Virus record (IMG/VR): IMGVR_UViG_3300029288_000168
Span: 5,394 to 69,393 of that record
Source of the DNA: a virus
Lineage: Duplodnaviria; Caudoviricetes
DNA length: 64,000 nucleotides
Direction: 5' to 3' (one strand)
Part shown: positions 35,980 to 64,000 of the stretch, piece by piece
Layout: every line of letters begins with the position of its first letter
Position numbering within the stretch: position 1 is the stretch's first letter
Notes under the pieces: generated by a model
What the model saw: the letters and a program-made list of their open reading frames with translations, nothing else
Database searches by the model: none
What the model was told of the DNA's origin: nothing
Translations under genes and position numbers: made by a program

Positions 35980-35980
35980 A

Positions 35981-36977: not shown

Positions 36978-37060
36978 GCGTGAGTGGCGGAATGGCAGAC
37001 GCGCTGCTTTGAGGTGGCAGTGGTAATACCGTAGGGGTTCGACTCCCCTCTCGCGCACCA
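36978..37060 (+). tRNA. tRNA-Leu(GAG)
   Basis: Class II, A73. Confidence 0.92.
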
Positions 37061-37068
37061 ATATGCAA

Positions 37069-37152
37069 GCGAGCGTGGTGGAATGGCAGACACGGCAGCC
37101 TCAAAAGCTGTTGGGTAAAACCGTGAAGGTTCAAATCCTTTCGCTCGCACCA
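37069..37152 (+). tRNA. tRNA-Leu(CAA)
   Basis: Class II, A73. Confidence 0.92.
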
Positions 37153-37156
37153 TTTT

Positions 37157-37240
37157 GTCAGAGTGGTGGAATGGCAGACACAACAGACTTAAAATCTGTC
37201 GGGTAAAACCGTGAGGGTTCAACTCCCTTCTCTGACACCA
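37157..37240 (+). tRNA. tRNA-Leu(TAA)
   Basis: Class II, A73. Confidence 0.92.
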
Positions 37241-37246
37241 ATTAAT

Positions 37247-37329
37247 GCCCGGGTGGTGGAATGCAGACACGTTAGCCTTAGGAGCTAATGCCGTAAGGCG
37301 TGAGAGTTCAAATCTCTTCCTGGGTACCA
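37247..37329 (+). tRNA. tRNA-Leu(TAG)
   Basis: Class II, A73. Confidence 0.92.
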
Positions 37330-40792: not shown

Positions 40793-40903
40793 GGGAGTCT
40801 TGTATGTATAAATCAAGTAAACAATTAAGAGGTAATGAGGCACGCCAAGTGCAGTCTGTCTCCGGCTGTCTTAAGTCGGCAGGACTCCTACTCGTTACCT
40901 CTG
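40793..40903 (+). ncRNA. Pseudoknotted 5' leader of the HNH gene
   Basis: 40793-802 pairs 40880-889; 40828-839 pairs 40892-903 (crossing); two inner hairpins. Confidence 0.6.
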
Positions 40904-40921
40904 TTCTATGCAGGGACTAAT

Positions 40922-41683
40922 ATGCCAACAACTGTGCAAGTTTGTAGAATATGCAAGGTAGGAAAGCCTACTACAGAGTTTTATAAACGGACAAATAAGA
41001 CTGGACATAGAACTGAGTGTAAGGATTGTAGGAGAAAATACGGAAAGTTATATAGGCTGGAACATAAAGCAGAAATTGCCAATGCAAAAAAGATGCAGGC
41101 GCAGTTGCACCCAGAGAAAGTTAGAGCTAGGAGAGAACGATATAAGCGAGCGCACCCAGATAGGGTAAGAGCTACTCAGAAACGGTATGCGCAGGTTCAC
41201 CCAGAGAATGGTCGGTTTAGGCAGAAGCGGTACCGTAAAGCGCACCCAGATAGAGTGGCTGCTAAAAATAAACGTTGGACGGAAGGTAATTTAGAACATA
41301 TAATTGCTTATCGGAAGCGGTACCGTCAGACGGAAGTGTATAAATTATCAGCCAGGGTAAATTCGCACAACCAAAAGACAAAGCGAGCAATTGTTGGTCA
41401 TTTAAGTTTGGGAACAGTGCAACAAGTTTATGAAGACAACATTAAGAAATATGGGACGCTTACTTGTGAATTGTGTTTTGATGTAATAGTGTTTGGCAAC
41501 GATTCGATTGAACATAGTATACCAATAGTAAGAGGCGGTACGCACGAGCGTTCTAACTTAGGCGTGGCTCATTTGCCGTGCAATTTATTTAAGGGTAGGA
41601 TGACGCTTGATGAATGGTTTGTATTACATTCAGAATATAAAGAAAGGAGGGGGAGTTATAATGGCAAAGGCAAAGGTTTTTAA
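40922..41683 (+). CDS. HNH endonuclease
   Basis: CRIC..CKDC N-terminus; CELC..SIEHSIPIVRGGTHERSNLGVAHLPCNLFKG; start moved to ATG 40922. Confidence 0.82.
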   Translation: MPTTVQVCRICKVGKPTTEFYKRTNKTGHRTECKDCRRKYGKLYRLEHKAEIANAKKMQAQLHPEKVRARRERYKRAHPDRVRATQKRYAQVHPENGRFRQKRYRKAHPDRVAAKNKRWTEGNLEHIIAYRKRYRQTEVYKLSARVNSHNQKTKRAIVGHLSLGTVQQVYEDNIKKYGTLTCELCFDVIVFGNDSIEHSIPIVRGGTHERSNLGVAHLPCNLFKGRMTLDEWFVLHSEYKERRGSYNGKGKGF

Positions 41684-48011: not shown

Positions 48012-49037
48012 ATGGCAGAAGTAGAGAAGAAATATGTAGTTATGATGGGTGCTGAGGTTATGTTCGGTCCAGAGGCGGATTATGCAAAGGTTAAGGCGTT
48101 TGCGGATAGCTTGTCACCTGCGATTAAGAGCAAGTGCACTGTAAAGACGACTACGTCTTCCAAGCCAAGTGCAACTGCAGCACCTGCAACAGCGACACCG
48201 GCTACGGCAAAGGCGCCTGCTAGTGCAGCAAAAGAGGCATCGAAGCCGGTTGCACCTGTTGATGGGGATGCTGTGTTTGGATCCTACTTGGAAGGTGGCG
48301 GTCCGTCAGACCTTTGGAAGCCCAAAGATGGGAAGAATATAATTAGGATTCTTCCTGTCGGTGGAGTGTTGCCGTCTGATTGGTCAACCCCGTATCCATT
48401 CATATTGTCTGGCGTGCACCCGAAGGTAGGGTTGTCGCTGAATGATATGGTGTACTGTGCTAGGCTTACTCACAAGAAGGCGTGTCCTTTGTGCCAGTTT
48501 ATCTGGAACTTGTATTCATCCAAGGACGAGAACGATGTAAAGTTAGCAAAAAGGATGAAGGCGTACAACCGCGTTATTGCTAACATTATAGACCTTTCTG
48601 ATGTAGAAAAGGGCGTTCAGAAGTTTGCTTTTGGTAAGACCTTAGCACGTAAGATCTTCTCATACATGGAAGATCCAGAGTTCAAACCCTTATTGGACGC
48701 TGAACAGGGTCATAACTTTGTAGTTATCAAGAAGACAGTAGATGGATATCCGAACTATGACGATTCCCGTCCAGAGGTTAAGATTACTCCGCTTTCCTCG
48801 ATTTACCCGAAGTGGAAAGATGAGGTGTTTGACCTTAGGAAAGAGATAGCGGAAAAGTCTTACGAAGAGCTTGCAGAAGTCCTTGCAAATACCAAGAAAG
48901 CCATTATGTCCACCGATCCTGGGGATATCCTTGGCGATCATACGTCCAGAAGGAAACCTAGTGGTGCCGTAGATGGTGATGTGGTAGTTGTAGAGGAATC
49001 GGAAGACAGTATACAAAAAAGGCTTAGCGAAATATAA
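48012..49037 (+). CDS. ssDNA-binding protein, T4 gp32-like, with an N-terminal Ala/Pro linker extension
   Basis: IRILP, CPLC, FAFGK, GHNFVVIKK..GYPNYDDS, acidic tail. Confidence 0.82.
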   Translation: MAEVEKKYVVMMGAEVMFGPEADYAKVKAFADSLSPAIKSKCTVKTTTSSKPSATAAPATATPATAKAPASAAKEASKPVAPVDGDAVFGSYLEGGGPSDLWKPKDGKNIIRILPVGGVLPSDWSTPYPFILSGVHPKVGLSLNDMVYCARLTHKKACPLCQFIWNLYSSKDENDVKLAKRMKAYNRVIANIIDLSDVEKGVQKFAFGKTLARKIFSYMEDPEFKPLLDAEQGHNFVVIKKTVDGYPNYDDSRPEVKITPLSSIYPKWKDEVFDLRKEIAEKSYEELAEVLANTKKAIMSTDPGDILGDHTSRRKPSGAVDGDVVVVEESEDSIQKRLSEI

Positions 49038-49107
49038 AGACTAACAGGTAAGGAAAGTAAAAGGAGGATGGGCAGGTCGCCTAGCGACTGGATACCCCAC
49101 CTGCCAA

Positions 49108-49992
49108 TTGGTCTTTTGTGCAACCATGCAAAACTTACATGTTAAGCCTAACTCTACGAAAACTAAGTTTTATGCCAATTGTCCGAACTGTGAAAATACA
49201 GGGAGAACGGTTGACACGAAGTTTCATCTTTATATAGTTCCCGGAAGGTTTGCCTATTGCTTCCGGTGTGGTTGGAAGATTTCCTACAGAAGGTTGATAG
49301 AACTATATAGAGTAGATGCGTCTGGTCTTAAAGATGACCCCGTAAGGAAGCCTGCCGGAGAATTTGACAAAGACATATCAGAGAACATTATACCATTCGG
49401 GGATTCTGTATATTCTACTGGGGCTATGAACTATTTGTTAAAGAGAAAACTGGATGTAGACCTAATTAGTAAAATGGGGATACATCTAGGTACCAATAGG
49501 TTGTTTGGTAGAGTTGTGTTTCTTGATCAAAAGAATAGGTACTATGTAGCGCGCGCTTTCCTTAAAGGTTTGGATCCGAAAACGTTAAATCCGCCATCTG
49601 GCACCTCTGGTAAACCTCTTATGTACTTTACTAAGCGGGAATATGATACATTGTACTTGGTTGAGGGTTGCTTCGATTCGGTTCCATTCCTGAAGACAAA
49701 TAGGTCTGCAGTGTGTGTGCTTGGCAAGGATGTTTCGGCAGATCAGATGAAACAACTGAAGTCTGTGTTGATTAAAACTATAATTATAGCTTTAGATAGT
49801 GATGCATTTGATGGAGCTAAACGGTTGGCTCAAAGGATTGCTGACGAACTTCCATTGACGAATATTGGTGTGTTAATGTATGATGATAGGGAAGGAAAAG
49901 ATCCGTCAGATTATGACGTTGAATTGTTTACTAAAACTAGTATTTATTGGGTCAGAATAATGAGCCAAAACTGTATGTTGGAGCGTGTATGA
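49108..49992 (+). CDS. DNA primase (Zn finger plus Toprim)
   Basis: CPNC..CFRCG; YLLKR; LVEGCFD; ALDSD. Confidence 0.85.
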   Translation: MVFCATMQNLHVKPNSTKTKFYANCPNCENTGRTVDTKFHLYIVPGRFAYCFRCGWKISYRRLIELYRVDASGLKDDPVRKPAGEFDKDISENIIPFGDSVYSTGAMNYLLKRKLDVDLISKMGIHLGTNRLFGRVVFLDQKNRYYVARAFLKGLDPKTLNPPSGTSGKPLMYFTKREYDTLYLVEGCFDSVPFLKTNRSAVCVLGKDVSADQMKQLKSVLIKTIIIALDSDAFDGAKRLAQRIADELPLTNIGVLMYDDREGKDPSDYDVELFTKTSIYWVRIMSQNCMLERV

Positions 49993-51257
49993 AAGGCAAG
50001 TTAAAGCCATATCAAGAGGCAGCAGTTAAGTTTATATTGGATAGACCCAAGTCTGCCCTTTTAATGCCAACTGGAACTGGGAAAACGATTGTAGCGTTGA
50101 TGTATTTGAAGGTTTTAGACAAGCCAGCCATGATTATATGTGAGGCGTCTAAGAAGCACATATGGATAAATGAAAATAAAAACTTTGAACTTGGATTAAG
50201 TCTTACAACTGACTTGCGACACCCAGGTAAGATATTTATTACATCCTATGACTGGATAAAGAATAATACTGAAGTAATGGAAGATTATGATATTTTTGTT
50301 TTTGATGAAGCGCATTGCATATCTGATCCAGAGACTGCTAGGTATAAAAACATTTCTGAGGTTCTTAAAAACAAAAGTCGTGTGGTGCTCTTGGCGGGTT
50401 ATCCAGTAGAGAATAAGCTTAATGAAATATTTGTATTGTCTTTGGTTACGGACGTGCTTGGTAAAAACTATTATCATTTCTTGTATAAGTTCTTTACAGT
50501 TATAAGGAGGAATGGTAGGATTATTAAGACAGTTGCTAAGCGCGGCTCTTTTGATAACATCATTGCGTTGATTAAAGATGTTGTTTTCATTGTCGATAAG
50601 TCGGAAGCTGTGCCTAGTACGGTAAAGAAAGAAACTGTAGTTGTTAGATACGAGTTGAGTGACTATCAAAAAGGCATAGTAAATGCTATTGCTGAGTTTG
50701 GGGAATACGATGATGGTAAAGTACATGTTATATGTAATGATGGGTTGTCTGTGTTTTCTAAAATGATGCAGATTATTTCTGGGTTTGTATACGTAGAAGA
50801 CCCAACAGCAACTAGTACTACATTTGATGAGAGTGCTGATAAAAAGCAAAAAGTGCCAGTGGTGCCAGTGTTCTTTGATTCACCAAACCCTAAATTGGAG
50901 GCGTTGCAGAGGATAGTTGCAGATCGTAGCAACTTTTTGTTGTGGTATTTCTTTGACGCTGAATATGAAATGCTAAAGAAGTTTGGGAGGTGCTCTCGCT
51001 TATGTAAGTTACAAGTAGATTCTCGCGGTTTAAACCTACAAAGCTTTGACTTTGCTATGTACTTTTCAATACCGACATCTGGTGGGATGTATTTTCAGTC
51101 TCAAGATAGGCTACATAGGATGGGCAGGACGAAGGATGTAATATCTGTGGTGTTGGTACCAAACGGGGAGTTCGGGGATAGGTTGTTGCAGATGCTTGAT
51201 CGCAAGCACAAATTGACTAAGAAATTTATAGACAGGTTGCTTCAGGTGAGGGTATAA
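49989..51257 (+). CDS. SF2 (SNF2-like) helicase
   Basis: LKPYQ, MPTGTGKT, DEAH, QSQDRLHRMG. Confidence 0.85.
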   Translation: MKGKLKPYQEAAVKFILDRPKSALLMPTGTGKTIVALMYLKVLDKPAMIICEASKKHIWINENKNFELGLSLTTDLRHPGKIFITSYDWIKNNTEVMEDYDIFVFDEAHCISDPETARYKNISEVLKNKSRVVLLAGYPVENKLNEIFVLSLVTDVLGKNYYHFLYKFFTVIRRNGRIIKTVAKRGSFDNIIALIKDVVFIVDKSEAVPSTVKKETVVVRYELSDYQKGIVNAIAEFGEYDDGKVHVICNDGLSVFSKMMQIISGFVYVEDPTATSTTFDESADKKQKVPVVPVFFDSPNPKLEALQRIVADRSNFLLWYFFDAEYEMLKKFGRCSRLCKLQVDSRGLNLQSFDFAMYFSIPTSGGMYFQSQDRLHRMGRTKDVISVVLVPNGEFGDRLLQMLDRKHKLTKKFIDRLLQVRV

Positions 51258-51700
51258 TGGATATAATAGTATTGAATAGAGGGTTGATACAACAATATTA
51301 TTCTGATACACCGCATATACTTATTTCTATATGTGATCCGTGCGATGTGCATCCGCCGTTGCCGCAGATAAAGGCAAGGGTAGGAACGTTGCAGTTGAAG
51401 TTCCATGATTTTAATGGTACTAAGTGCATAAGCATACGCAAAGATAACTACGTCGACAAATCCGGCAAAATGGTGGCATTTTCCCGCGCACACGCCAAGA
51501 AGATACTTTCCTTTGTAAAGAAACATACTTTGGAGATAGGGTTGATAGTGTGTCAGTGTGATGGTGGTATTAGTAGGAGTGCTGGTGTAGCAGCGGCACT
51601 ATCTAAATGCTTTAACCAAGACGATTCTTTCTTTTTTAAATGTTACTTGCCAAATAGCTTAGTTTATAGTACAATATTAAAGGAGTGGCATGGGGTTTAG
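51257..51700 (+). CDS. Cys-based (PTP/DSP-like) phosphatase
   Basis: CDGGISRS (CX5R). Confidence 0.75.
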   Translation: MDIIVLNRGLIQQYYSDTPHILISICDPCDVHPPLPQIKARVGTLQLKFHDFNGTKCISIRKDNYVDKSGKMVAFSRAHAKKILSFVKKHTLEIGLIVCQCDGGISRSAGVAAALSKCFNQDDSFFFKCYLPNSLVYSTILKEWHGV

Positions 51701-52976
51701 TACTGATCAATATGAATTGCTTTTACTGTCTACAATAGTAAAAGATGACGATGCGTTTAGGAAGACGATGGGCCTTGCTGACTCCCAGATGTTTTCATCT
51801 GCCATGTCTTCAGACGTTTATGATATACTTCGGGTGTTTTATGCAGAATATAACAGGGTACCTACTCAGTCTGAACTTTTGTATTTGTATAAGCGCGATC
51901 GTACAATTGCCGACGATTCTATTGTTGTTGGTTTCTTAAACCTTATATACACCCAGGAAGTAGACACCAAATTTGTTACCAACGAGCTAAACAGATATGC
52001 TAAGTTGCGTAAACTCGAAAACTTATTTAAGACTTCCTATGAGAAAATTAAGTCTGGTTCTGATGTAGATGTATCATCTACTGTGTCTAGCATGTTTAAG
52101 ATACAGATGGATTCTATAGAAGATAAACATATATATGGAGTTAACATTGATGAGTCAGAGTATATACTGGAACAAGGCAAAACTAGGAAATGTGTGCCAA
52201 CAAATATAAGTTTCTTAAATGATATTCTGCGTACTGGATCGATTGGGGAGGTTGGAGGTCTTGGTGCTGGTCAACTCGGCATAATACTAGCTCCGCCGAA
52301 CTACGGGAAAACGATGTCTTTGTTGAATTTTGCATTATATGCGTGGTTGAAAGGTCACAACGTTTTGTTTGTTACGCTAGAAATGCCAGAGTTTTCCATA
52401 TTGAGGCGTGTAATGATGTTGTTGTCTGGCGCTTTGAAAATGGATATTACTATGGATGGCATTAAGGTTATTAGTGAGAAGGTAAATAAGAAGTTTATGA
52501 TACTTTACAGACCAGTACGATCTATTTCGGTGGATTATTTGTATTCGGTCTACCATCAAGCAGATGCGGATGGTATTAAATTTGATATAATGTATGTAGA
52601 CTATGCAGATTTGTTGTTATCCCAAGCTCGGTACAAGGAAAAACGGTTTGAGTTGGCAGATATATTTAGTGCATTAAAGGCATATTCTCAGATTTTGCAG
52701 ATTCCGGTTTGGTCAGCTACTCAGGCCAATAGAGAGGGCTTGCGAGCCGAAGTGGTTACAATGGAGCATATGTCTGAGTCTATTGATAAAGCATTTGTAA
52801 GCGATGTTGTACTATCGCTGTGTGAGAAGATGGAACCAGGCAAGGTGTCTAAGTTCTTTTTAACAAAACATAGAGAAGGTAAGTCAGATATATACATAGA
52901 TATGTTTGTAAATGATAAAATGTGGGTGGAGAATAGTGAACGAGCTGTTTCCGTTTCTATGGACAATGTAAGCTAA
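51690..52976 (+). CDS. DnaB/gp41-like replicative helicase
   Basis: APPNYGKT, TLEM, YVDYAD, SATQANR, KHREG. Confidence 0.9.
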   Translation: MGFSTDQYELLLLSTIVKDDDAFRKTMGLADSQMFSSAMSSDVYDILRVFYAEYNRVPTQSELLYLYKRDRTIADDSIVVGFLNLIYTQEVDTKFVTNELNRYAKLRKLENLFKTSYEKIKSGSDVDVSSTVSSMFKIQMDSIEDKHIYGVNIDESEYILEQGKTRKCVPTNISFLNDILRTGSIGEVGGLGAGQLGIILAPPNYGKTMSLLNFALYAWLKGHNVLFVTLEMPEFSILRRVMMLLSGALKMDITMDGIKVISEKVNKKFMILYRPVRSISVDYLYSVYHQADADGIKFDIMYVDYADLLLSQARYKEKRFELADIFSALKAYSQILQIPVWSATQANREGLRAEVVTMEHMSESIDKAFVSDVVLSLCEKMEPGKVSKFFLTKHREGKSDIYIDMFVNDKMWVENSERAVSVSMDNVS

Positions 52977-53044
52977 AACTACTGAAGAGGTGAGGTTATA
53001 TAGTTTGCTAATTAAAAATAAAGCGAGAAAGGCGGTAATGAATA

Positions 53045-53377
53045 GTGAAGACAAAAAGATTAAAAGAGATAGAACCAAGAGAGCGACCGACTGTACATTG
53101 TCTTAATTGTATTAACTTTAAGACTCGGTTGATTACTAAGAGGATGATTAAGGATGCGCTTAGAATGAAGTCGCGTGTAGCGTTAGAAGATGAAGGAGAC
53201 AGGCTTGGTTTCCCATTAAACTATATTGTGGCACGCAACGTTAAAAAAGACGGGCAGGCGCGTATTTATTACTGTAGCAAGGGTATGATGAGGCGGAACG
53301 TGTATGTGTGCAAAGATGACAAAAGGTTAAGTACGTTTTGCCCAGAGAATCCCCATTATTGCCAGTGTTATAAGTAA
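53045..53377 (+). CDS. Cys-containing hypothetical protein
   Basis: ORF between helicase and polymerase. Confidence 0.55.
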   Translation: MKTKRLKEIEPRERPTVHCLNCINFKTRLITKRMIKDALRMKSRVALEDEGDRLGFPLNYIVARNVKKDGQARIYYCSKGMMRRNVYVCKDDKRLSTFCPENPHYCQCYK

Positions 53378-53395
53378 TATATTCTACAAAAGTAG

Positions 53396-53424
53396 TTGAC
53401 GTTGTTGTTTAGGTGTGGTATAAT
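53396..53424 (+). promoter_or_regulatory. sigma70-type promoter
   Basis: TTGACG-17-TATAAT. Confidence 0.7.
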
Positions 53425-53449
53425 GTTGTATACAACAAAATGAGGTGAT

Positions 53450-56400
53450 GTGGTGGATTTTAAAGTAGACAACTTTGAATCGTCGGCAAATTGTAGTGCT
53501 TGCACACTTAATAACACTCCTAAAGTTTTTTCCTGTATATCTAATGTAAGTCAGGTGGATATTTTGGTTATTGGTCAGTCTCCAGGTCTAAACGAGGTTA
53601 AAGAGGGTAAGCCGTTTGTCGGTGCGTCTGGTGAGTTGATACACAGGGTGCTTGATCAGTATTCGAAGAATACTGCTATGGTTAATATAATATCCTGTCG
53701 CCCTGAGGATCAGGAAACTAATAAAGACAGGCAACCGTCTACCATAGAGGTAAAGTGTTGTAGACCTAGGCTAGATGCTGATATCAATTACATAATATCT
53801 CATTTGCCCCCAAAAACCATTCTTGTATTTGGTGCAATTGCTAAAAAGGAAATGCAACGCATCTTAAAGTCTAACCCCTCCTACGAGAAAATCCCCATTG
53901 CTACATTCGACCATCCTGCATACATACTTCGCAATAGGCACTTGGAACCTCGGTATGTAGCACAGTTGCATAACCACATGAAGTCCATATTTGGTAATAG
54001 CAGTACGGTAAGTGTAGAAGAGAAATTTGTTACCTATACTGACAACCTTAAACATCAGTTTGTAGAGGATGCTTATAGTTCTAAAAACGTTGGTGTAGAT
54101 ATTGAAACTAATAGTTTAAATGTGTTTAGTTTGTCTTTTATTATAGGAACTATAGCAGTTAGTTGTGATAAGTTTACATATTTCTTTGATTGCAGGGAAA
54201 AAGATATTAAGGAGTACGATGTATTGGTTGACTTCCTGCAATCAGATAAGGTTCAGAAAGTTTTTGCGGATATACTATTTGATGTTGTTGCTTTGGCACA
54301 ATATAATATAAAAGTAAGAAATTATTCAGATTTGTTTCCGTTGGCCTTTATATACGATAATACATACAACGAGTATGGATTAGAGGCAATTAGTATGAGG
54401 TACATGCCAGACTTGGCTGGGTACAAGTCTAAATTCAAGTCTTCTTTGGTAGAGCATGATTATTTAGGGGCTCCAACCGAAGAACTAAAGCGCTATAATG
54501 CCTACGACTCTTACATGACGCGTATGTTGTACAACTACATCTACGACCGTCTGGATGTTAAAGCAAAGACTATATTTGAGAAAATTACTGTAAAGTTGTT
54601 GCCGGTACTTGTAGTGTTGAAATGTTCTGGCATGAAAATAGACGCTGACTTGTTGGATCAATATACGGGTATATTCAAAGGCAGGATAGACGAACTTTCT
54701 AAATATTTTAATGATAAATATGGGGTAACCAACATAAATTCTACGCCCCAAATAAGTAAGTGGTTGTTTGAGACGCTGAAGCTTAAACCTATAAAATATA
54801 ATGATCTAACTGCTACACAAAAAGCAAAGGGACAGAAGAAGGGATCTCCGTCTACGGATAAGGAGGTACTTGAGGCATACGCTAACGAGGTGCCAGATGT
54901 CAATCCGCTTTATGAGGCACGTAGGGTGACCAATGTGCTTACTTACTTTTTGCCGTCCATTAAAGAAAGTTTGGATGATAGAGACATAGTGCATCCAAAC
55001 TTTAAACATTATGGTATACAAAGCTTCCGTTTAGCCTGTAAAGCACCGCCGCTTCAGGGAATTCCGCGTGATGAAACTAAGAGCGAATTTTTAAATCAGT
55101 ATCCGTTACGCAGGTTGTTTGTAGCTAGGTTTAGTGACTCGTATATATTGGAGTGTGACTTCTCGCAACAGGAAGTCAGGATTGTTGCTGAATTGGCTCG
55201 TGATAAAGGCATGATGGATACATTTGCCAAGAACGAAGACATTCACAAGTTTGTTGGATCTCTGGTTTTTGAGAAGCCAATAGATCAGATAACTAAGTTT
55301 GAGCGTCAGATTGCAAAAGGTTGCGTGTTTGGTGCAATTTTTGGGGCATCGGCAAAAGAAATGAGTGTTAGGTTGCATATGCCAGAGAAGCAGGCACAGA
55401 CGTATTTAAATAAATTTGTAGATGCGTTTCCGAGTGTTAGTGACTACCTCGCCCTACAACACAGGGCAGTTAAGAAGAACGGTGTAATTCATACGGTACT
55501 TGGCAGACCGCGAAAGTTTTTGATAGATTCTAATAGCAGATCTGCTATTGCTGATGCGGAACGCGAAGCTGCGAATCACTGTTTTCATTGGGATACTCGT
55601 GTGCTTTTAGAGGGCGGTGCTTCAAAGACAATCAAGGAAATTGTAGATAAAAAGCTTTCTGTTAAAGTTGCTTCGGTGAACAGTGCTACAAATAAAATTG
55701 AATTTAAACGAGTAGTGAATTGGTTTAAGAATGAATACAAGGATCCTCGGTGGTTGCGTGTAAATGTACAAGGTAGCAATGGTAAACATGGAGCGGTGTG
55801 TACACCAGATCATAGATATTACACTTCACGTGGTGTGGTGGAGGCTAAGAATTTGAGAGTTGGTGATATGTTATATACGAATTACTTACATATTCCGTCT
55901 ACCACATGTGAACAAATAATTCTTGGCAGTTTGCTTGGTGATGGTGGTATAAGCATGAGTAATGGTGTACGATTGTATATGACGCATTGTAATAAACAAC
56001 GATCTTATTTAGAGTACAAGTGCAGTATATTACAACCTTATATTGGTGGTAAAGTATCAAAAGGTGTTGCTGGTCTTAAAAGTTTTAAGCCTGGCAATAT
56101 AATGTGGAATTATCGTTCGAATGTGCATTGGAACCTTGCCGAGTATTATAATTTAAAATACCCTAATCTTGGTGTAAAGGATATAGTTAATAAAATAAGT
56201 TGGCTTGGGTTGGCTATATGGTATCAGGATGATGGGGGTTTGTGTCGTAGTAGGCACAATGTGGGGCGTAGATCTCATCACAGAGAAGGTTGGAGGCAGT
56301 TTATAAGGATTCATACAGAAAGTTTTAGTTTTGACGAGTCGATCCTGCTTGCAGAACTGCTAAATAAAAAATTTGGGTTGAAGTTGTATGTACGCAAGAG

Positions 56401-57046
56401 AAAATGTCACGGGGTGGTTGTTCCTGTGGTTGAAATGTATAGTAAACAACATTTAAAGGTGTTCTTTGATAATATTAAAATGCATATTCACCCTGGTTTG
56501 AAGTATAAACTGCCAACTACCTATTGTAATTCTAAATTTGATGGTGGCAGTGGTGGCAATGTTGCTAGAGTTCCGGCGTTGGTTAAGTGTGTTGGTATAA
56601 CTGAGGTTTGTTATTCAAATGACAAACGTAGGGGTTATTTAGATGCTTGTAAACACAAAACTAAATACAATATTGAGGTTGAAGATAACCACAATTATTT
56701 TGTAGGAGGAGGTGCTAAATACTTTTGTTTAGTTAAAAATTGCATTCAATCACTAGGTGCTGACATTTCCTTCCTATCCCTTATAAAAATACATGATAAA
56801 TTGGTTGCAGATGGGGTGTTATACAATGGTGTTTTTATTATAAATACTATACACGATTCTATACTGTTTGATGTGAGACGCCAATACTTAAAGTATGTGT
56901 GCGATGAAATAGCGCCGATTATGACAGATGTGCCAAAGATGCTAGGGTTTAAGGTTAAGTTTCCTGTGGATATAAAGGTAGGCAAGCGCTGGGGTGAGTC
57001 ACTGAAATTGGAGGATATACTAAAACAAGAGGTTGAAAGTGCCTAA
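53450..57046 (+). CDS. polA: Family A DNA polymerase with N-terminal family-4 UDG domain, 3'-5' exonuclease and an intein
   Basis: GQSPG..GKPFVG, HPAYILR; DIET; DFSQQEVR; RQIAKGCVFGAIFG; IHDS. Confidence 0.92.
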   Translation: MVDFKVDNFESSANCSACTLNNTPKVFSCISNVSQVDILVIGQSPGLNEVKEGKPFVGASGELIHRVLDQYSKNTAMVNIISCRPEDQETNKDRQPSTIEVKCCRPRLDADINYIISHLPPKTILVFGAIAKKEMQRILKSNPSYEKIPIATFDHPAYILRNRHLEPRYVAQLHNHMKSIFGNSSTVSVEEKFVTYTDNLKHQFVEDAYSSKNVGVDIETNSLNVFSLSFIIGTIAVSCDKFTYFFDCREKDIKEYDVLVDFLQSDKVQKVFADILFDVVALAQYNIKVRNYSDLFPLAFIYDNTYNEYGLEAISMRYMPDLAGYKSKFKSSLVEHDYLGAPTEELKRYNAYDSYMTRMLYNYIYDRLDVKAKTIFEKITVKLLPVLVVLKCSGMKIDADLLDQYTGIFKGRIDELSKYFNDKYGVTNINSTPQISKWLFETLKLKPIKYNDLTATQKAKGQKKGSPSTDKEVLEAYANEVPDVNPLYEARRVTNVLTYFLPSIKESLDDRDIVHPNFKHYGIQSFRLACKAPPLQGIPRDETKSEFLNQYPLRRLFVARFSDSYILECDFSQQEVRIVAELARDKGMMDTFAKNEDIHKFVGSLVFEKPIDQITKFERQIAKGCVFGAIFGASAKEMSVRLHMPEKQAQTYLNKFVDAFPSVSDYLALQHRAVKKNGVIHTVLGRPRKFLIDSNSRSAIADAEREAANHCFHWDTRVLLEGGASKTIKEIVDKKLSVKVASVNSATNKIEFKRVVNWFKNEYKDPRWLRVNVQGSNGKHGAVCTPDHRYYTSRGVVEAKNLRVGDMLYTNYLHIPSTTCEQIILGSLLGDGGISMSNGVRLYMTHCNKQRSYLEYKCSILQPYIGGKVSKGVAGLKSFKPGNIMWNYRSNVHWNLAEYYNLKYPNLGVKDIVNKISWLGLAIWYQDDGGLCRSRHNVGRRSHHREGWRQFIRIHTESFSFDESILLAELLNKKFGLKLYVRKRKCHGVVVPVVEMYSKQHLKVFFDNIKMHIHPGLKYKLPTTYCNSKFDGGSGGNVARVPALVKCVGITEVCYSNDKRRGYLDACKHKTKYNIEVEDNHNYFVGGGAKYFCLVKNCIQSLGADISFLSLIKIHDKLVADGVLYNGVFIINTIHDSILFDVRRQYLKYVCDEIAPIMTDVPKMLGFKVKFPVDIKVGKRWGESLKLEDILKQEVESA
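55580..56740 (+). mobile_element. Intein (387 aa) with LAGLIDADG endonuclease
   Basis: AANH|CFHWDTRV ... YNIEVEDNHNYF..VKN|CIQS; LGSLLGDG and AIWYQDDG. Confidence 0.92.
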
Positions 57047-57269
57047 AGCAAAGGTTCCGAGGAAGCTTAGTATTGTTAAGTTTGTTACCAAAGGGTTTGA
57101 TACAGACTACATTAGGAGTCTTCCTTTTAAAGAGTCCTATGTTTATGTTTTCTTAGGAGAAATACCGAATATGCGTGGTCGTTGTATAGTTATGAACTAT
57201 AAAAGTGGTTGTATATTTAGCGGGTATCATACGAATAGTTTTGTTGAACTAACCAGGGATGAAGTTTAA
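57033..57269 (+). CDS. Hypothetical protein
   Basis: Overlaps both neighbours; VFLGEIPNMRGRC. Confidence 0.6.
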   Translation: MKVPKAKVPRKLSIVKFVTKGFDTDYIRSLPFKESYVYVFLGEIPNMRGRCIVMNYKSGCIFSGYHTNSFVELTRDEV

Positions 57270-58314
57270 AACAAGGAGGTGTGTTGTGCAGGAAGGAAAG
57301 CTTAACGTTTTAATTGGAATTTCATTTGGGTCAGAAGGTAAAGGCAATGTTGCCAATTATTTGGCTGTCAAGCATCCGGATTTGGATTTGTGTATTGCTA
57401 ACAATTCTCCGAATGCTGGTCATCAAATAAAGCGTGAAGATGGTACGGTAGAGACTATAAAGATGTTGCCTACTGCTGGTGTTATTTGTAAAGGTGCCAA
57501 CATCTTGCTTGGATCTGGTTCTGTTATAGATAAGGATAAGTTGATCGAGGAAATAAACAAATACGACGTTGCTGGCAGGCTTACTGTGTCGGCTTTTGCT
57601 CCTGTAGTAAGCGAGGAGTGTAAAGAATATGAAAGGGAGAACTTAAAGTATATAGCATCTACGTTTCAGGGTACTGGTGCGGCTATCGGATTGAAGGCCA
57701 TGCGATCGCCGTCTATTAAGTTAGTTAAGGATTACCCTGAATTGGAAAAGTGGTGTCACTATCATACACCCGATATTATACTTAATCGGGTAGGCAAAGC
57801 TGGTCATACTGCACTAGCGGAGGTTTGCCAAGGATATGGGCTGTCCGTAGATTCAGAGCACTATCCTCACGTTACGTCGCGCCCAGTTAATGTTGGTCAG
57901 GCTTTTGGGTATTTAGATGTACCCCCGTCGTTGTGTGGTGATGTAATCGGAGTGGCGCGTACCTACATAATAAGAGTAGGTAACGTGGAAGGAGGTTCAT
58001 CTGGTGATACCTTCTACGATTCTAAGGAGGTATCTTGGGAAGAAGTATCTGCTAAGTTGAACAGACCGACTATTGAGTTTACGTCTGTAACTAAGCGCAA
58101 GAGAAGGGTGTTTACTTTTTCCAAGTACTTGTTTAACCAAGCTGTTAAGCGCAACGGTGTAAATGTACTTTTCCTAACTTTTGTCGATTATTTGTTGCCC
58201 GATGAGTTGAAGGAGATGACTGATTATGTAACGTCTGATGAGTTCAACTTTAAGGAAATTTACTTTGTACGTGGGTTCGGAGAATTTGACAAATTCGTGG
58301 AAAAGATTAGGTAA
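57259..58314 (+). CDS. purZ: Adenylosuccinate synthetase-like protein with the PurZ/PurZ0 Asp-to-Ser signature
   Basis: FGSEGKG, PNAGH, QGYGL..YPHVTSR, VTKRKRRVFTFS, LTFVDY. Confidence 0.7.
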   Translation: MKFKTRRCVVQEGKLNVLIGISFGSEGKGNVANYLAVKHPDLDLCIANNSPNAGHQIKREDGTVETIKMLPTAGVICKGANILLGSGSVIDKDKLIEEINKYDVAGRLTVSAFAPVVSEECKEYERENLKYIASTFQGTGAAIGLKAMRSPSIKLVKDYPELEKWCHYHTPDIILNRVGKAGHTALAEVCQGYGLSVDSEHYPHVTSRPVNVGQAFGYLDVPPSLCGDVIGVARTYIIRVGNVEGGSSGDTFYDSKEVSWEEVSAKLNRPTIEFTSVTKRKRRVFTFSKYLFNQAVKRNGVNVLFLTFVDYLLPDELKEMTDYVTSDEFNFKEIYFVRGFGEFDKFVEKIR

Positions 58315-59003
58315 TGAATCCGTGCTTTGAGACAGAGCTGGGCAAGTTGTATAATGCAGACTGTATGTCAGTATTGCCTAGTATTGATGATTCAAGTGTG
58401 GATTTGGTAGTTACTGATCCGCCGTATAACTTCGATTGTCGTGGCAGAGGTACTGTACATACGGCTAAAGACGATTTTGCTAATAATGCAATGTCGCCAG
58501 AAGAATATGTTGCTTGGTTTAAGCAAGTAGTTGATCAGTTATATAGGGTTGTAAAAGACGGCGGTGCTGTCTACGTTTATTGCGGATGGAAATTGTACCC
58601 GCATGTATACCCGATAATTGGTAAGTTGTTTGATATAAAGAACTGTATTGTTTGGCGGAAGCAACATTTTGGGGTCGGTTATCACTTTAGGTTTCAGCAT
58701 GAGTTTGTAGTATTTGCTACTAAGGGTAAACACCAACTGCGCCTACAGAAGCGGAATATATCAGATGTATGGGACATTGACAAGGAGAACAACAATCGTG
58801 TGCATCCAGCTCAAAAGCCTGTTGAGGCTATGTCACGTCCGATATTGTACTCTACTGATGTGGGCGGGTTGGTGTTAGACCCTTTTAATGGATCTGGTAC
58901 AACGTCACTTGCAGCCGAACGATCTGGTCGCAAATGGATAGGCATTGAGATGGACACAGAATACTGTGATAAAACCATAGAGAGAATAATTAAGAATGTA
59001 TAA
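58314..59003 (+). CDS. N4-C/N6-A DNA methyltransferase (beta class)
   Basis: VTDPPY, HPAQKP, VLDPFNGSGTT. Confidence 0.9.
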   Translation: MNPCFETELGKLYNADCMSVLPSIDDSSVDLVVTDPPYNFDCRGRGTVHTAKDDFANNAMSPEEYVAWFKQVVDQLYRVVKDGGAVYVYCGWKLYPHVYPIIGKLFDIKNCIVWRKQHFGVGYHFRFQHEFVVFATKGKHQLRLQKRNISDVWDIDKENNNRVHPAQKPVEAMSRPILYSTDVGGLVLDPFNGSGTTSLAAERSGRKWIGIEMDTEYCDKTIERIIKNV

Positions 59004-59080
59004 GTTTATTGCGTGGATTATAAGGCTGAATTTGAAGCCACTAGAGTGGAAGATTAATAGTATGTTGAGGAGGATTAAAG

Positions 59081-60802
59081 ATGCAACTTAGCCAGAACGC
59101 TATACAGGTGCTTGAGAAGAGGTATTTAGCAAAAGATAGGACTGGAAAGGTAATTGAAACCCCAGAACAACTTTTTGAGAGGGTAGCACGCACTATATCG
59201 GGTGCGGAGCGCGATGAGTCTATGAGTGAGTATGAGGAGAAATTTTATAAGATTATGACTAATTTGGAGTTTTTGCCAAATACTCCTACCCTTATAAACG
59301 CTGGGCGTGCAATAGGGCAATTATCCGCATGTTTTGTACTCAACATTGATGATAGCATGGAGTCTATATTTACCACGCTTAGAGATGCTGCATTGGTTCA
59401 AAAAAGCGGCGGAGGTTGTGGGTACAGTTTTTCCAATGTTCGTCCGTCTGGCGATTTAGTTAAGAGTACTAATAAGTGTGCGGGTGGTCCAATAGCGTTT
59501 ATTCGTATATTTGATAAGGCCATGGAAGCAATAGAGCAAGGCGGAGTGCGCCACGGTGCAAATCTTGGAACGTTAAGGATAGATCATCCGGATATAGTGA
59601 GTTTTATAGAGTGTAAACAAAAAGAAGGGGATATACCTAACTTTAACTTGTCTGTAGGTATTACTGATGAGTTTATGTCTGCAGTTAAGAGTGATAGGAT
59701 GCACCAATTGATTAATCCTCATACTGGTGCTGTTGTTAAAGAAATTAAGGCTAAAAAGTTGTTTGATCTAATAGTTCACCATGCTTGGGCAAACGGGGAA
59801 CCGGGCATTTTGTTCCTTGATGAGATGAACCGTCACAATATGATACCAAATGTTGGTGCCATAGAGTCGACGAATCCGTGCGGAGAGTTGCCACTTTTGG
59901 CGTATGAGTCGTGCAATTTAGGATCTGTAAACCTTGGAAGATTTGTCAAAGCTGAGAAGGTGGACTACGATCGCCTTGAGTATGTAGTTAGGCTTGCAAC
60001 AAGGTTTCTTGATGATGTGATAGACATGAACAAATACCCTATATCTCAAATAGAAACAAAGACTAAAATGACTAGGAAAATTGGGTTAGGAATTATGGGA
60101 TTTGCGGACATGCTTATTAAACTAAATATACAGTATGATACTGAAGAGGCAGTACGTTATGCGTCTGATGTTATGAGAAAGATTCGGCAATGGTCTATTG
60201 ATGAGTCTTCTAAGCTTGCTGAAGTGCGCGGTGTTTTCCCGGCTTGGCGCGGGAGCCGTTGGCAAACTGACGAGGGAGTTAGGTTAAGGAATGCAGGACT
60301 GACTGCTATAGCTCCTACAGGCACATTGTCCATTATTGCTAATGCATCTAGTGGGTGTGAGCCATATTATTCGAAGACTGTAAAGAAGCATGTAATTAAT
60401 ACTATACTCGAAGAGGAGGTTGAGTATGCTAAATCAGACTGCTTCATTACAGCTAAGGAAATATCGCCAGAATGGCATGTTAAGATCCAGGCGGCTCTTC
60501 AGGCGCAAACGTGTTCGGCAGTTAGTAAGACTATTAATTTTCCGAATGATGCTACTGAGGATGATATTAAGAGATCTATACTGTTAGCTTATAAATTAAA
60601 ATGTAAGGGTATTGCTTTGTACCGCGATGGATCAAGGGAAAAGCAAGTTTTGTATAGTGGAGATGCAAAGAAGGATGTTGTACCTACTAAGGAAAAGGCG
60701 ATAGAAAAGTGTCCAGAGTGTGGGGCTGATGTTGTAAATGAGTCTGGGTGCGTCAAATGTTCAAATGCGGGTTGTGGCTGGTCAGCTTGCAAAATTTCGT
60801 AA
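59081..60802 (+). CDS. nrdJ: Class II (B12-dependent) ribonucleotide reductase
   Basis: PNTPTL, ACFV, TNPCGE, ESCNLG, GLGIMG, IAPTGT, C-terminal Zn ribbon. Confidence 0.88.
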   Translation: MQLSQNAIQVLEKRYLAKDRTGKVIETPEQLFERVARTISGAERDESMSEYEEKFYKIMTNLEFLPNTPTLINAGRAIGQLSACFVLNIDDSMESIFTTLRDAALVQKSGGGCGYSFSNVRPSGDLVKSTNKCAGGPIAFIRIFDKAMEAIEQGGVRHGANLGTLRIDHPDIVSFIECKQKEGDIPNFNLSVGITDEFMSAVKSDRMHQLINPHTGAVVKEIKAKKLFDLIVHHAWANGEPGILFLDEMNRHNMIPNVGAIESTNPCGELPLLAYESCNLGSVNLGRFVKAEKVDYDRLEYVVRLATRFLDDVIDMNKYPISQIETKTKMTRKIGLGIMGFADMLIKLNIQYDTEEAVRYASDVMRKIRQWSIDESSKLAEVRGVFPAWRGSRWQTDEGVRLRNAGLTAIAPTGTLSIIANASSGCEPYYSKTVKKHVINTILEEEVEYAKSDCFITAKEISPEWHVKIQAALQAQTCSAVSKTINFPNDATEDDIKRSILLAYKLKCKGIALYRDGSREKQVLYSGDAKKDVVPTKEKAIEKCPECGADVVNESGCVKCSNAGCGWSACKIS

Positions 60803-60815
60803 AGGAGATGTATCG

Positions 60816-61304
60816 ATGAGCGAACAATTGGATGAAATATTAAACAACATCAGTTTGGCCTTTGGTATAGATAACCTAGAGGTAGTGTTTCCAGAAGATA
60901 CCTTAGTTGAATTGTCTTTGTTTAGGATATCCAAAATAGATGCTACTAGGTTAGATGAGGAGTTGGTATTTGAACCAAAGGTTTACATGTTGTTCTGTGC
61001 AATACTGGCGCACGTTTCAAATAAATATGAGCGCATGGAAGCTCATGTGGAGCAGTTGGATGCTAAATTATCGCTGAAGTACGAGAAGCATTTAATAAGT
61101 TCTGATGAGCGTGTTTCTGACAAGAAGATTGATAAACTGGTCAAAGCTGATGATGATTATGTAGAGGCTGTTAACAAATGCCTTGAGTATAAAAACATGG
61201 TTATTACGTTTAGGAATATACTTAATGGCTTGGATAAGAAGCATGATGGTTTGATGCAATTATCATCAAAACGTAACAAAGAAATTTCACAGAGGATGAT
61301 ATGA
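60816..61304 (+). CDS. UvsY-like recombination mediator
   Basis: Coiled coil, KKIDKLVKADDDY..GLDKK; upstream of RecA; AAGGAG SD. Confidence 0.65.
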   Translation: MSEQLDEILNNISLAFGIDNLEVVFPEDTLVELSLFRISKIDATRLDEELVFEPKVYMLFCAILAHVSNKYERMEAHVEQLDAKLSLKYEKHLISSDERVSDKKIDKLVKADDDYVEAVNKCLEYKNMVITFRNILNGLDKKHDGLMQLSSKRNKEISQRMI

Positions 61305-61642
61305 ATTTATTGATGGCAGTAGTGTTTGCGCACTACATTGCTGATTGGGCTCTCCAAACGGAGTTTGTAGCTAGGAACAAGGGCAAATATGGGTATATTA
61401 TGTTTAGCCACAGCATGGTGTGGACTGGAGTTATTTGCTTTGTTTTAAACTACTACAATGCTTATTCTTTATGGAAACTTGTATTTTTGTTGGTTGGTCA
61501 TATGTGGATGGATCAATATAAAATGGATAGGGTAAAAGAAGACTGTTCTGCTAGCAGGGAAACAGAAAAACACAATTTAAGACTGCTTTATATAGATCAG
61601 GCGTGGCATTTTGTGCAGTGTGTTGTTGTTAGTATATTTTAA
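61301..61642 (+). CDS. DUF3307-like membrane protein
   Basis: AHYIADWALQT, HSMVW, HMWMD, DQAWH. Confidence 0.75.
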   Translation: MNLLMAVVFAHYIADWALQTEFVARNKGKYGYIMFSHSMVWTGVICFVLNYYNAYSLWKLVFLLVGHMWMDQYKMDRVKEDCSASRETEKHNLRLLYIDQAWHFVQCVVVSIF

Positions 61643-61654
61643 AGGAGATGTACA

Positions 61655-62836
61655 ATGGCTAAAAAAGAAGAGAAGGGTGTTGTAAGCAAGTTGGAATCAG
61701 TTGACATATCAAAGCTTGTTAGTGGGTTGGTTGATGAGTATAGGAAGAAGAATATGCTTATCGAAACTGGGCACATTAACTGTGAGTTTTTTGATTCTGG
61801 AAACTTGGCGCTTAATTATATTTTGTCTGGCAAGTTTGATGAGGGATTCCCTACTGGTCAAGTTATTAACGTCCATGGTGATCCTCAGACTGGGAAAAGC
61901 TTGTTAGTATGCAATGCCATAGCTAACTTCCTAAAGAAATACCCAGATGGTGTTGCCATATTGGATGATACAGAGTTTGCCTATGTTGAATATTTAGGCA
62001 GTAATTTAGGTATTGATGAGTCAAGGTTTATAAGGTTAAATACCTCTACTGTTGAGGAGCATTCTAAGGCAGTGTTCTTTGGCGGTAAGATTAAGACAAT
62101 GGACGTTGATACTGGAAAGGATGTGGAGGTAGAGGTAGAGCCTATTGTACCTAAGCTTTGGAATAAAGGATGTAAACACATCCTTATAGCAGTTGATTCT
62201 ATAGCTATGTGGTCAACTGAGCATGAGCTTGCTATAGTTGGTTTAGATAAGCCTGATATGGGCAAGGCAAAAGTGTTGAGGGCTCTGCTCCGTACTATCA
62301 TGCCAGAGGTAAAGAAATACGGTTTAACATATATAATTACTAATCATTTGATATTCAACATAGGCGATATGTTTGGACCGCGCAAAATTGAAGGTGGTGG
62401 TCAGGCGCCAGCGTATCAGTCTTCTATAAGGCTTTGTATGCAAATTGCTGGGAAAATAAAGGTTGACAGTAAGGGTAAGAGTGGGGAACTAGGGGGAGAC
62501 AAGGATGATAAGAATGCCAAGATAGTTGGCGTAGTTGCTAGGGCTACCACGGTTAAAAACAGGTTTGCACCTCCATTTAGAAATTGCCTTATAGACATTA
62601 AGTTTGATGCGGGTATGTCTAGGTTTTCTGGGTTGTTGAAGCTCCTACAAGATTTGAGCATTGTATTGCTTGCGCCCGGTGGATGGTACGAAACTTGCGA
62701 TAAGAAAATAAAGTTTCAATCTAAAGACTTTGAAGCTAAGTGGCCTGAAATAAAGGCATTGATAACTCCAGATAGGGTAAAGATGCGCGAGTCGGAGTCT
62801 CCTATAATAGTTGAGGATATAAAAGACGAGGAATAA
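61655..62836 (+). CDS. recA: RecA/UvsX recombinase
   Basis: SGNLALN, GDPQTGKS, DTE, VDSIA, VKNRF..P. Confidence 0.9.
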   Translation: MAKKEEKGVVSKLESVDISKLVSGLVDEYRKKNMLIETGHINCEFFDSGNLALNYILSGKFDEGFPTGQVINVHGDPQTGKSLLVCNAIANFLKKYPDGVAILDDTEFAYVEYLGSNLGIDESRFIRLNTSTVEEHSKAVFFGGKIKTMDVDTGKDVEVEVEPIVPKLWNKGCKHILIAVDSIAMWSTEHELAIVGLDKPDMGKAKVLRALLRTIMPEVKKYGLTYIITNHLIFNIGDMFGPRKIEGGGQAPAYQSSIRLCMQIAGKIKVDSKGKSGELGGDKDDKNAKIVGVVARATTVKNRFAPPFRNCLIDIKFDAGMSRFSGLLKLLQDLSIVLLAPGGWYETCDKKIKFQSKDFEAKWPEIKALITPDRVKMRESESPIIVEDIKDEE

Positions 62837-62850
62837 GAAAGGAAAACGCT

Positions 62851-63981
62851 ATGTTTAAATACTCACATCAGTCTATAAGCTTAGATGAGGTATCTGTAAT
62901 ACCAGAGTCGGTAACTACTATAAGTGACGACGATGTTGATTTAACTATGTGGATAGGGGACTTAAAGCTCAAGTTGCCTATTGTAGGCGCCGCTATGGAT
63001 AGCGTTATGTCGGTCAAGTCGTTATTAGAACTAGGAAGGCTTGGTGGCATCGGCATTGTTAACCTATGCGGTTTGATCTCAAGGTATCCGTTAGATAAAT
63101 ATAATGATATATATGCAGAACTTGCAAGTTCCCCGTCTGTGTCTACCTTACAGAAGATTTATAACTCAGAGCCGGTTAATATGGTAGTATTGCAGAGCAA
63201 CTTGGCAAAATTGCAGGAGATAGTTGGGGATGTAGAATTTGCTGTATCTGCTACTCCACAACAGGCTGAAAGGTTGTTTGGCGTTGCAATGCAACAAGGC
63301 ATAAGAGCTTTAGTTATCCAGTCGTCGTTTATATCACCGTACTGGTCGTCGAGTAAGGCTACTGGTCTCAATGTTGGAAAATTTATCCAATATGCGCGCC
63401 AAAACGGGTGCACGGTAATGGTTGGTAATGTGGCCAGTTTGAATGCAGCTGTACCCTTTATAGAGGCTGGTGTAGATGCTATTATTGAAGGTGTTGGACC
63501 TGGAGTCCAGTGTACCACTCGCTTTGTTTTAGGCATAGGAGCTGGACATGTTACTACGATAGACGACTTACGTGGATATATTGAAAAGCAGAAATCTAGG
63601 ACAATTATTATAGCAGATGGTGGCATACACAATAGTGGCGACATTGTTAAATTGATGTGTTGTGGTGCTCATGCTGTTATTTTGGGCGGTATGATATCCA
63701 AAACAGTAGAGTCGCCGTTTAATGGATATCATTGGGGCATGTCGGCCTATCACCATACTCTGCCCAGAGGCACGCTTTTGCATTATGAGGTTGAAGATGG
63801 GGCTACAATAGAAAGGTTGTTAATGGGGCCGTCCACAAGAGCCGATGGTACATTGGCGCTCATTCCAGCCATAAAGAATGCTTTATCTAATTTGGGTTGT
63901 AATAGTATAAATAATGCCTACAGAGATACATTGGTAACGCGGTTTGCTGGCATACTAACAGAGGGTAAAGATAAAAAATGA
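62851..63981 (+). CDS. IMPDH/GMPR family protein (GuaB3-like, no CBS domain)
   Basis: AAMDSV, GVGPGVQCTTR, IADGG, YHWGM. Confidence 0.82.
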   Translation: MFKYSHQSISLDEVSVIPESVTTISDDDVDLTMWIGDLKLKLPIVGAAMDSVMSVKSLLELGRLGGIGIVNLCGLISRYPLDKYNDIYAELASSPSVSTLQKIYNSEPVNMVVLQSNLAKLQEIVGDVEFAVSATPQQAERLFGVAMQQGIRALVIQSSFISPYWSSSKATGLNVGKFIQYARQNGCTVMVGNVASLNAAVPFIEAGVDAIIEGVGPGVQCTTRFVLGIGAGHVTTIDDLRGYIEKQKSRTIIIADGGIHNSGDIVKLMCCGAHAVILGGMISKTVESPFNGYHWGMSAYHHTLPRGTLLHYEVEDGATIERLLMGPSTRADGTLALIPAIKNALSNLGCNSINNAYRDTLVTRFAGILTEGKDKK

Positions 63982-64000
63982 TGACGAATAAGGAAGCGAA

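Follow-up and report, generated by a model that had tools for sequence, protein, structure and literature searches.

Two configurations of the biosynthesis of 2-aminoadenine (Z) DNA have been described, both in phages of 38–83 kb. In the first, an ATP-using PurZ is accompanied by DatZ, MazZ and a phiVC8-like DpoZ polymerase; in the second, a GTP-using PurZ0 is accompanied by DutZ, DmtZ and a Wayne-like DpoZ. PurZ0 is said, in work by Tong et al. from 2023, to use GTP. We analyzed a purZ-like gene in a 64,000-base stretch of phage DNA (the window), corresponding to bases 5394–69393 of the 69,393-base IMG/VR contig IMGVR_UViG_3300029288_000168; coordinates are those of the window unless another locus is named. 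The encoded protein is of the PurZ type, rather than a PurA, as judged from its Ser-containing P-loop, dGMP pocket, aspartate loop, sequence and fold matches and position in the tree. Together with a DUF5664 diphosphohydrolase, a UDG-fused family A DNA polymerase (PolA), the ribonucleotide reductase (RNR) NrdJ and a GuaB3-like enzyme, it probably makes up a working pathway to dZTP and Z-DNA in a third configuration. A first-pass annotation of the window had proposed a dZTP pathway, and our analysis supports that proposal; we infer that Z is present in the phage DNA.

The PurZ proteins of S-2L (7ODX) and phiVC8 (6FM1/6FKO) share with the window protein their fold, Ser P-loop, dGMP pocket, T-x-V-T loop and side of the tree, and their genes likewise have a family A polymerase gene nearby. 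However, they are only 31–35% identical to it, and their donor pocket reads N/(N,Q), rather than T/D. Their clusters comprise PurZ, MazZ or DUF550, and DatZ (plus DpoZ in phiVC8), in genomes of 38–45 kb, whereas the lineage described here has a UDG-PolA without DatZ, MazZ or DUF550, in a phage that would have a genome of at least ~100 kb, with 34 tRNA genes and T4-like replication proteins. The actinophage PurZ0 proteins (Gordonia phage Archimedes, 7VF6; Ghobes; Arthrobacter phage Wayne) also have a Ser P-loop, together with a PurA-like Thr/Asp base pocket, and a stand-alone DUF5664 diphosphohydrolase is common to their systems and ours. Those systems carry DutZ, DmtZ, DUF5664-1 and a Wayne-like DpoZ, whereas neither a dUTPase-like DutZ nor an NDT-like DmtZ was found here; the PurZ0 P-loop reads GSEAKG, rather than GSEGKG, and the window protein lies outside the PurZ0 clade. 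The short archaeal-type PurA (P. horikoshii, 5K7X/2D7U) is similarly compact (~340 amino acids) and has a GTP-type Asp. It provides the second-best NCBIfam model and the next fold match after the PurZ structures, but it has the catalytic Asp and uses IMP, in contrast to the Ser and PurZ-type loop found here. The lineage therefore mixes characters, with an enzyme of the PurZ branch, a donor pocket of the PurZ0/PurA type, DUF5664 as the sole helper and a UDG-PolA, in a phage much larger than the described Z-phages that also has a class II RNR, chaperonins and tRNAs of its own. Published work already covers the chemistry and both helper families; the combination of genes, the clade and the type of genome are new with respect to the literature examined.

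The purZ-like protein and its nucleotide pockets

The purZ-like gene, of the N6-succino-2-amino-2'-deoxyadenylate synthase type, occupies positions 57259–58314 on the plus strand as its longest open reading frame (ORF), which is free of stop codons and encodes 351 amino acids with a match to the adenylosuccinate synthetase family of Pfam (PF00709, E 1.5e-33). In this product, the motifs FGSEGKG, VTKRKRR and LTFVDY lie at residues 23–29, 277–283 and 306–311, respectively. The true start is probably the in-frame GTG at 57286, giving 342 amino acids, because this codon is preceded, at a distance of 6 nucleotides, by a perfect AAGGAGG (57273–57279), the 342-residue product was called by gene callers in three other assemblies, and the alignments of relatives begin at query residue 10. 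Residue numbers below refer to the 351-residue product.

Among solved structures, the best sequence match was obtained with S-2L PurZ 7ODX (E 2.7e-38), followed by phiVC8 PurZ (E 3.9e-34); P. horikoshii PurA came behind both (E 1e-21), and PurZ0 7VF6 gave a weaker match still (E 5.6e-16). The AlphaFold model of the protein (pLDDT 95, pTM 0.93) ranked the folds in the same order, with TM values of 0.84–0.86 against the PurZ structures 7ODX and 6FKO, 0.79 against P. horikoshii PurA and 0.78 against PurZ0. The top NCBIfam model was amino_Aden_PurZ (NF038379).

The P-loop carries Ser (S25) at the position of the catalytic Asp13 of PurA (GDEGKG). This substitution had been noticed in the first-pass annotation, as had the retention of VTKRKRR and of the Asp of LTFVDY, and all three are present at these residues. 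The Ser is kept in all 43 alignable members of the clade to which the protein belongs (see below) and in 272 of the 274 homologues with a residue at this column; Asp was found only in the PurA of E. coli and S. aureus. Mapping from the ligand contacts listed for S-2L PurZ (PMC8342488) identified conserved dGMP-pocket and phosphate-binding residues at G24, S25, N52, A53, G54, H55, S134, T135, R149, Q191, T206, R239, V240 and R282; leaving A53 aside, each of these is kept in 43–46 clade members. Some pocket positions of the query deviate, Thr being replaced by Q56, Gly by A133 and Tyr by H204, and residue 342 being acidic. Its aspartate loop reads T-S-V-T, close to the T-T-V-T of PurZ and PurZ0 and distinct from the G-A-T-T of PurA; the T-x-V-T pattern is likewise kept in 43–46 clade members.

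The phosphate-donor pocket is of a different kind. In S-2L PurZ, N305 and Q308 contact the 6-amino group of adenine, and Q308 would leave no room for a 2-amino group (PMC8342488). These positions are occupied by T307 and D310 in the query, from which the adenine-specific donor pocket (which also involves N297 in phiVC8) is absent. The base pocket reads T307/F308/D310, with F308 and Y311 PurZ-like. Throughout the 46 rows of the clade, position 307 is T or S and position 310 is D. D310 aligns with Asp333 of E. coli PurA, which we take to be the guanine-specifying residue. It also aligns with the Asp of the PurZ0 of Archimedes, Ghobes and DrRobert; Asp occupies this position in four actinophage PurZ0 as well as in those of Archimedes and Ghobes, whereas ATP-using PurZ carry N or Q. 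Among the 271 Ser-type homologues sampled, 146 have D, 101 N and 18 Q, so the “PurZ0-like” donor pocket is common and no actinophage peculiarity. On the basis of T307/D310, we predict, with moderate confidence, that GTP or dGTP is the phosphate donor. This prediction is made uncertain by position 342, which is acidic or polar throughout the clade and lacks the base-stacking Pro of PurZ and PurZ0. The GTP-type donor pocket of this PurZ-branch enzyme looks ancestral. The statement in the first-pass annotation that PurZ0 enzymes keep a PurA-like Asp is correct for the C-terminal Asp, but does not hold for the P-loop, in which PurZ0 also has Ser (PMC12884076). The wording on the use of GTP by PurZ0 is indirect in one source (bioRxiv 10.1101/2025.10.22.683976), and another gives the ATP and GTP preferences in the order opposite to that of its own introduction (PMC12884076).

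Proteins of cultured phages are no more than 35% identical to the purZ-like protein, which belongs to a clade of ~46 proteins known only from metagenomes (51–81% identity); the next homologues are found only at 40%. When the clustering threshold of a library is 50% identity, essentially one full-length representative of the clade is left; that library contains 3192 homologues at E ≤1e-3. The first-pass annotation had called for a phylogeny with PurA, PurZ and PurZ0. Trees were estimated with FastTree (271 rows) and IQ-TREE (70 rows; LG+C20+F+G4 PMSF, with ultrafast bootstrap and SH-aLRT support) and rooted on the two bacterial PurA sequences, from E. coli and S. aureus; archaeal PurA was left out. 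Both methods gave the same placement. The clade is monophyletic (100/100 in IQ-TREE) and lies within a 50-row group (100/96) containing seven reference PurZ (phiVC8, S-2L, SH-Ab 15497, PMBT28, BUCT555, Bm1 and vB_BpsS-140), from which the four PurZ0 references, a kinase-fused clade and the PurA of E. coli and S. aureus are excluded. The sister of the clade within this group has a support of only 34/10. The kinase-fused clade (100/100) consists of Ser-type PurZ-like metagenomic proteins (P0059–P0121, ~48 in the FastTree tree) of ~535 amino acids with a fused nucleotide-kinase domain (AAA_33/AAA_18). Its members, each with the GTP-type Asp, fall on the PurZ0/PurA side of the tree.

Polymerase and helper genes

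The polA gene (53450–57046, plus strand) lies two genes upstream of the purZ-like gene, as annotated, with a 78-residue ORF between them (57033–57269, plus strand) that has no Pfam or PHROG match; a small ORF is present here in relatives too. According to Pfam, the polA product combines a family 4-like UDG domain, a 3'-5' exonuclease and a family A polymerase. It is interrupted at approximately residues 711–1085 by an intein with a LAGLIDADG endonuclease. Intein-free orthologues of 789–825 residues are found in L029, L032, L033 and the complete relative G001 (804 residues; IMGVR_UViG_3300035208_003134, 97,890 bases, loci L010–L014), the PurZ of which is 68% identical to the query. In another relative, L007, both PolA and the RNR contain inteins.

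UDG-fused PolAs are known from N4-like phages (cluster 17) and from SPO1-type phages containing 5-hydroxymethyluracil (SPO1, SP-10, SP-15), with the same order of N-terminal family 4 UDG-like domain, exonuclease and polymerase (PMC10201439). The classification in that work does not describe a link between this polymerase type and purZ. In the window protein (UDG domain, 53450–54010), motif B keeps its His (HPAYILRN), whereas motif A reads GQSPG, rather than the GE(A/G)PG of family 4; the replacement of Glu by Gln makes glycosylase activity doubtful. A restriction-enrichment study counted the UDG Pfam domain among those associated with contigs in which dZ had been enriched experimentally (bioRxiv 10.1101/2025.10.22.683976), an association that fits this lineage but is no proof for it.

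Two further genes for nucleotide metabolism lie downstream on the plus strand, as had been annotated: that for NrdJ, a class II (B12-dependent) RNR (59081–60802; TIGR02504, 642 bits, cut-off 400), and that for the GuaB3-like protein of the IMPDH/GMP reductase family (62851–63981), which keeps the catalytic-loop Cys (GVGPGVQCTT). The top model for the latter, TIGR01304, scored 231 bits, under its cut-off of 342. The window ends 19 nucleotides after this gene, the last before the end of the contig. The annotated lack of DatZ and MazZ within the window is real, and is in part an effect of this contig end.

The exact GuaB3-like protein occurs in four other assemblies, which match the window at every overlapping base (up to 11,150), and two of which extend 10 kb further. 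One of them, L034, is 100% identical to window positions 52851–64000 and carries, 2.2 kb past the window end, a gene for a 141-residue DUF5664 dATP/dGTP diphosphohydrolase (L034:13353–13778, equivalent to window positions 66203–66628; PF18909, 50.2 bits, cut-off 27). It is preceded by genes for a GIY-YIG/NUMOD3 endonuclease (L034:11155–11925), an RNase T-like exonuclease and a KTSC protein. Because this gene is carried by contigs identical to the window, the same phage encodes a diphosphohydrolase of the Wayne type, acting on deoxynucleoside triphosphates. The search for helper hydrolases beyond the window proposed in the first-pass annotation thus yielded DUF5664, but not the HD-domain DatZ or MazG/DUF550 that had been expected. 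A PF18909 gene adjoins or neighbors purZ in five further relatives: it directly follows the GuaB3-like gene in G001 and L033, and purZ in L004 and L005/L006, and it lies after recA in L007. The DUF5664 protein is very divergent, with no phmmer match to DrRobert gp46 and only a match of 3.9e-5 to the SH-Ab fusion, and an exact 43-mer of its gene gave no match in an IMG/VR scan. The Wayne enzyme hydrolyses dATP, dGTP and dUTP to the monophosphates, preferring dATP approximately tenfold over dGTP, with a low turnover (kcat 0.48 per s on dATP; PMC12884076).

The Pfam models PF13023, PF12917, PF01966, PF03819 and PF04447 (HD, HD_3, YfbR-like, MazG and DUF550 models), PF00692 (dUTPase) and PF05014 (NDT) found nothing in the 69-kb contig or in G001; the named control genomes scored with each of these models except PF04447, so the DUF550 negative is uncontrolled. 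No DatZ was found in a further 10 kb beyond this first extension of the window, and phmmer searches gave no convincing match when the DatZ and MazZ proteins from phiVC8, S-2L and SH-Ab 15497 served as queries. Extending the phmmer queries to DutZ/DmtZ and neighboring proteins, and to DrRobert, retrieved only ORFs of the DUF5664 type, in relatives. A candidate for S-2L MazZ (L034:19929–20348, phmmer E 0.0026) was rejected for want of Pfam support. Over the contig, its extension and G001, we regard this lineage as genuinely lacking DatZ and MazZ.

A putative dZTP pathway and its rivals

In the pathway that we consider probable, NrdJ would supply deoxynucleotides, and the GuaB3-like enzyme would perhaps help to supply guanine nucleotides. 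The DUF5664 diphosphohydrolase would convert dGTP into dGMP, the substrate of PurZ, and drain dATP to dAMP. The PurZ-type synthetase would then join dGMP and aspartate to form N6-succino-2-amino-2'-deoxyadenylate, the committed step towards dZTP, which host PurB and host kinases would complete, and the UDG-fused PolA would place Z opposite T.

Several observations weigh against such a pathway. The score of the protein for NF038379, 182 bits, is under the curated cut-off of 300, and the stacking Pro is missing from position 342. A family A polymerase does lie beside purZ, as the first-pass annotation had noted with reference to Z-phages, but it is not a DpoZ: it scored far below the cut-offs of DpoZ_1 (82 bits, cut-off 500) and DpoZ_2 (39.5 bits, cut-off 350; NF038380/NF038381), the generic PolA model outscored both, phmmer comparisons with three DpoZ gave E values of only 1e-3 to 1e-8, and identity to any cultured phage PolA does not exceed 28%. 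No gene for DatZ, MazZ-1, DUF550, dUTPase or NDT was detected in the 69-kb contig, the 20-kb extension or the complete 97.9-kb relative. DUF5664 (PF18909) is not found within 10 kb in relatives L031 and L032, and phages whose genomes are canonical can carry DUF5664-like genes too (PMC12884076). The purZ-like stop codon overlaps the ATG (TAATG) of a gene for a beta-class DNA methyltransferase with an adenine-type DPPY motif (58314–59003, plus strand; PF01555, 5.9e-43); such translational coupling is odd, because no adenine would remain in fully Z-substituted DNA. These points notwithstanding, we regard the predicted pathway as likely.

Some of these points would also fit a PurZ-type enzyme in a phage in which adenine is replaced only partly, or in which the reaction mainly manipulates nucleotide pools. 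Such an outcome would follow if the phage has neither a dedicated dATPase nor a Z-selective polymerase, and the absence of DatZ and DpoZ, the coupled adenine-type methyltransferase and the slow turnover of the Wayne DUF5664 are all consistent with it, as is the finding that Z clusters alone led to only partial substitution in E. coli (bioRxiv 10.1101/2025.10.22.683976). However, S-2L can do without a Z-selective polymerase (PMC10201439): its DNA is fully substituted by a non-selective one once dATP has been removed (PMC8342488, PMC10201439). The preference of DUF5664 for dATP and the strong conservation of the purZ-like gene across its ~46-protein clade also argue against partial replacement or pool use, which we consider unlikely, although it is the best of the alternatives.

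It is improbable that the substrate is another 6-oxopurine nucleotide (GMP, dIMP or dXMP), with a product that is not a Z precursor. The divergence of the lineage from characterized PurZ (no more than 35% identity) and the changed pocket positions would be compatible with such a shift, but all contacts to the dGMP base and the Ser beside the 2-amino group are conserved, and the gene is accompanied by one for a dGTP/dATP diphosphohydrolase. A plain auxiliary metabolic gene of the PurA kind, converting IMP into adenylosuccinate to boost the AMP supply, would share the PF00709 fold, the GTP-type Asp and the nucleotide-metabolism neighbors, but is very improbable given the replacement of Asp13 by Ser throughout the clade, the PurZ-type aspartate loop and the separation from PurA in the tree (100/96).

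The Z-DNA pathway could be taken further, as a third, independently assembled system, a proposal that we put forward tentatively and consider rather doubtful as a whole. The PurZ-branch synthetase would still be run by GTP or dGTP, the lone DUF5664 would both remove dATP and supply dGMP, and UDG-PolA would have acquired its competence for Z separately from the two DpoZ families, in phages of at least 100 kb that carry a tRNA set of their own; Z might even be methylated by the coupled DPPY methyltransferase. If the mixed configuration of this lineage were confirmed, it would follow that ATP use arose within the PurZ branch, that two genes suffice as a minimal Z toolkit, and that a third polymerase family copes with Z, which would be useful for enzymatic Z-DNA synthesis.

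Neighboring genes and the phage genome

The best NCBIfam models for the methyltransferase are adenine-specific, none scoring over its cut-off, and tblastn matches are annotated as both adenine and cytosine methyltransferases, which does not settle the target base. Several relatives (L004–L007 and L029) have methyltransferases of the Dam-like (D12) or N6_N4 kind next to purZ; these are unrelated to the window enzyme. G001 has no GATC, TCGA or CATG sites, against ~366 of each expected from its base composition, and GGCC at 0.31 of expectation; the same kind of avoidance is mild in the window's own contig (0.5–0.7). Such restriction-site counts carry no information on modification, since 47% of the enzymes tested still cut dZ DNA.

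Synteny between G001 and the window extends from the gene for the single-stranded DNA-binding protein to the GuaB3-like gene. Upstream of polA, a block of replication genes on the plus strand (48012–52976) encodes this gp32-like binding protein, a Toprim primase, an SNF2-type helicase, a 147-residue ORF product and a DnaB-like helicase, in the same order as in relatives. Between nrdJ and the GuaB3-like gene, also on the plus strand, lie genes for a UvsY-like recombination mediator (60738–61304), with a weak match just under the cut-off (PF11056, E 3.3e-4) and conserved in G001, a DUF3307 protein and a RecA/UvsX-like recombinase (61655–62836; PF00154, 2e-18).

A megablast search of window positions 50000–64000 against cultured phages gave no match. 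CheckV rated the 69,393-base contig as 37% complete, and joining it to a JGI contig through their identical overlap would give a genome of at least ~100 kb. Past the window, L038:10001–20708, which belongs to the same phage, encodes SbcCD, a resolvase, Cpn10, Cpn60, a CCA-adding enzyme and a peptide deformylase. The DUF5664–SbcCD–Cpn10/Cpn60 block is shared by a strain variant (L039:13763–19185; ENA ERZ27247363 k141_2956219), in which it is followed by a bona fide GuaB3 (468 bits, cut-off 342), the GMP synthase GuaA (832 bits) and a DNA polymerase III alpha gene. Either the phage carries genes for guanine nucleotide synthesis, or the contig crosses into host DNA at this point; the second GuaB3 and GuaA were not used as evidence, because that contig end may be host DNA or come from a different strain.

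The window is rich in tRNA genes, as annotated, with ARAGORN identifying an array of 34 (30418–37329, plus strand). Together with Cpn10/Cpn60, the peptide deformylase and the CCA-adding enzyme, the array makes up what appears from the gene content to be a large translation and folding toolkit. Homing-type endonucleases of the LAGLIDADG and HNH types lie inside the array (32811–35711), and a further HNH endonuclease follows the ligase gene (40835–41683).

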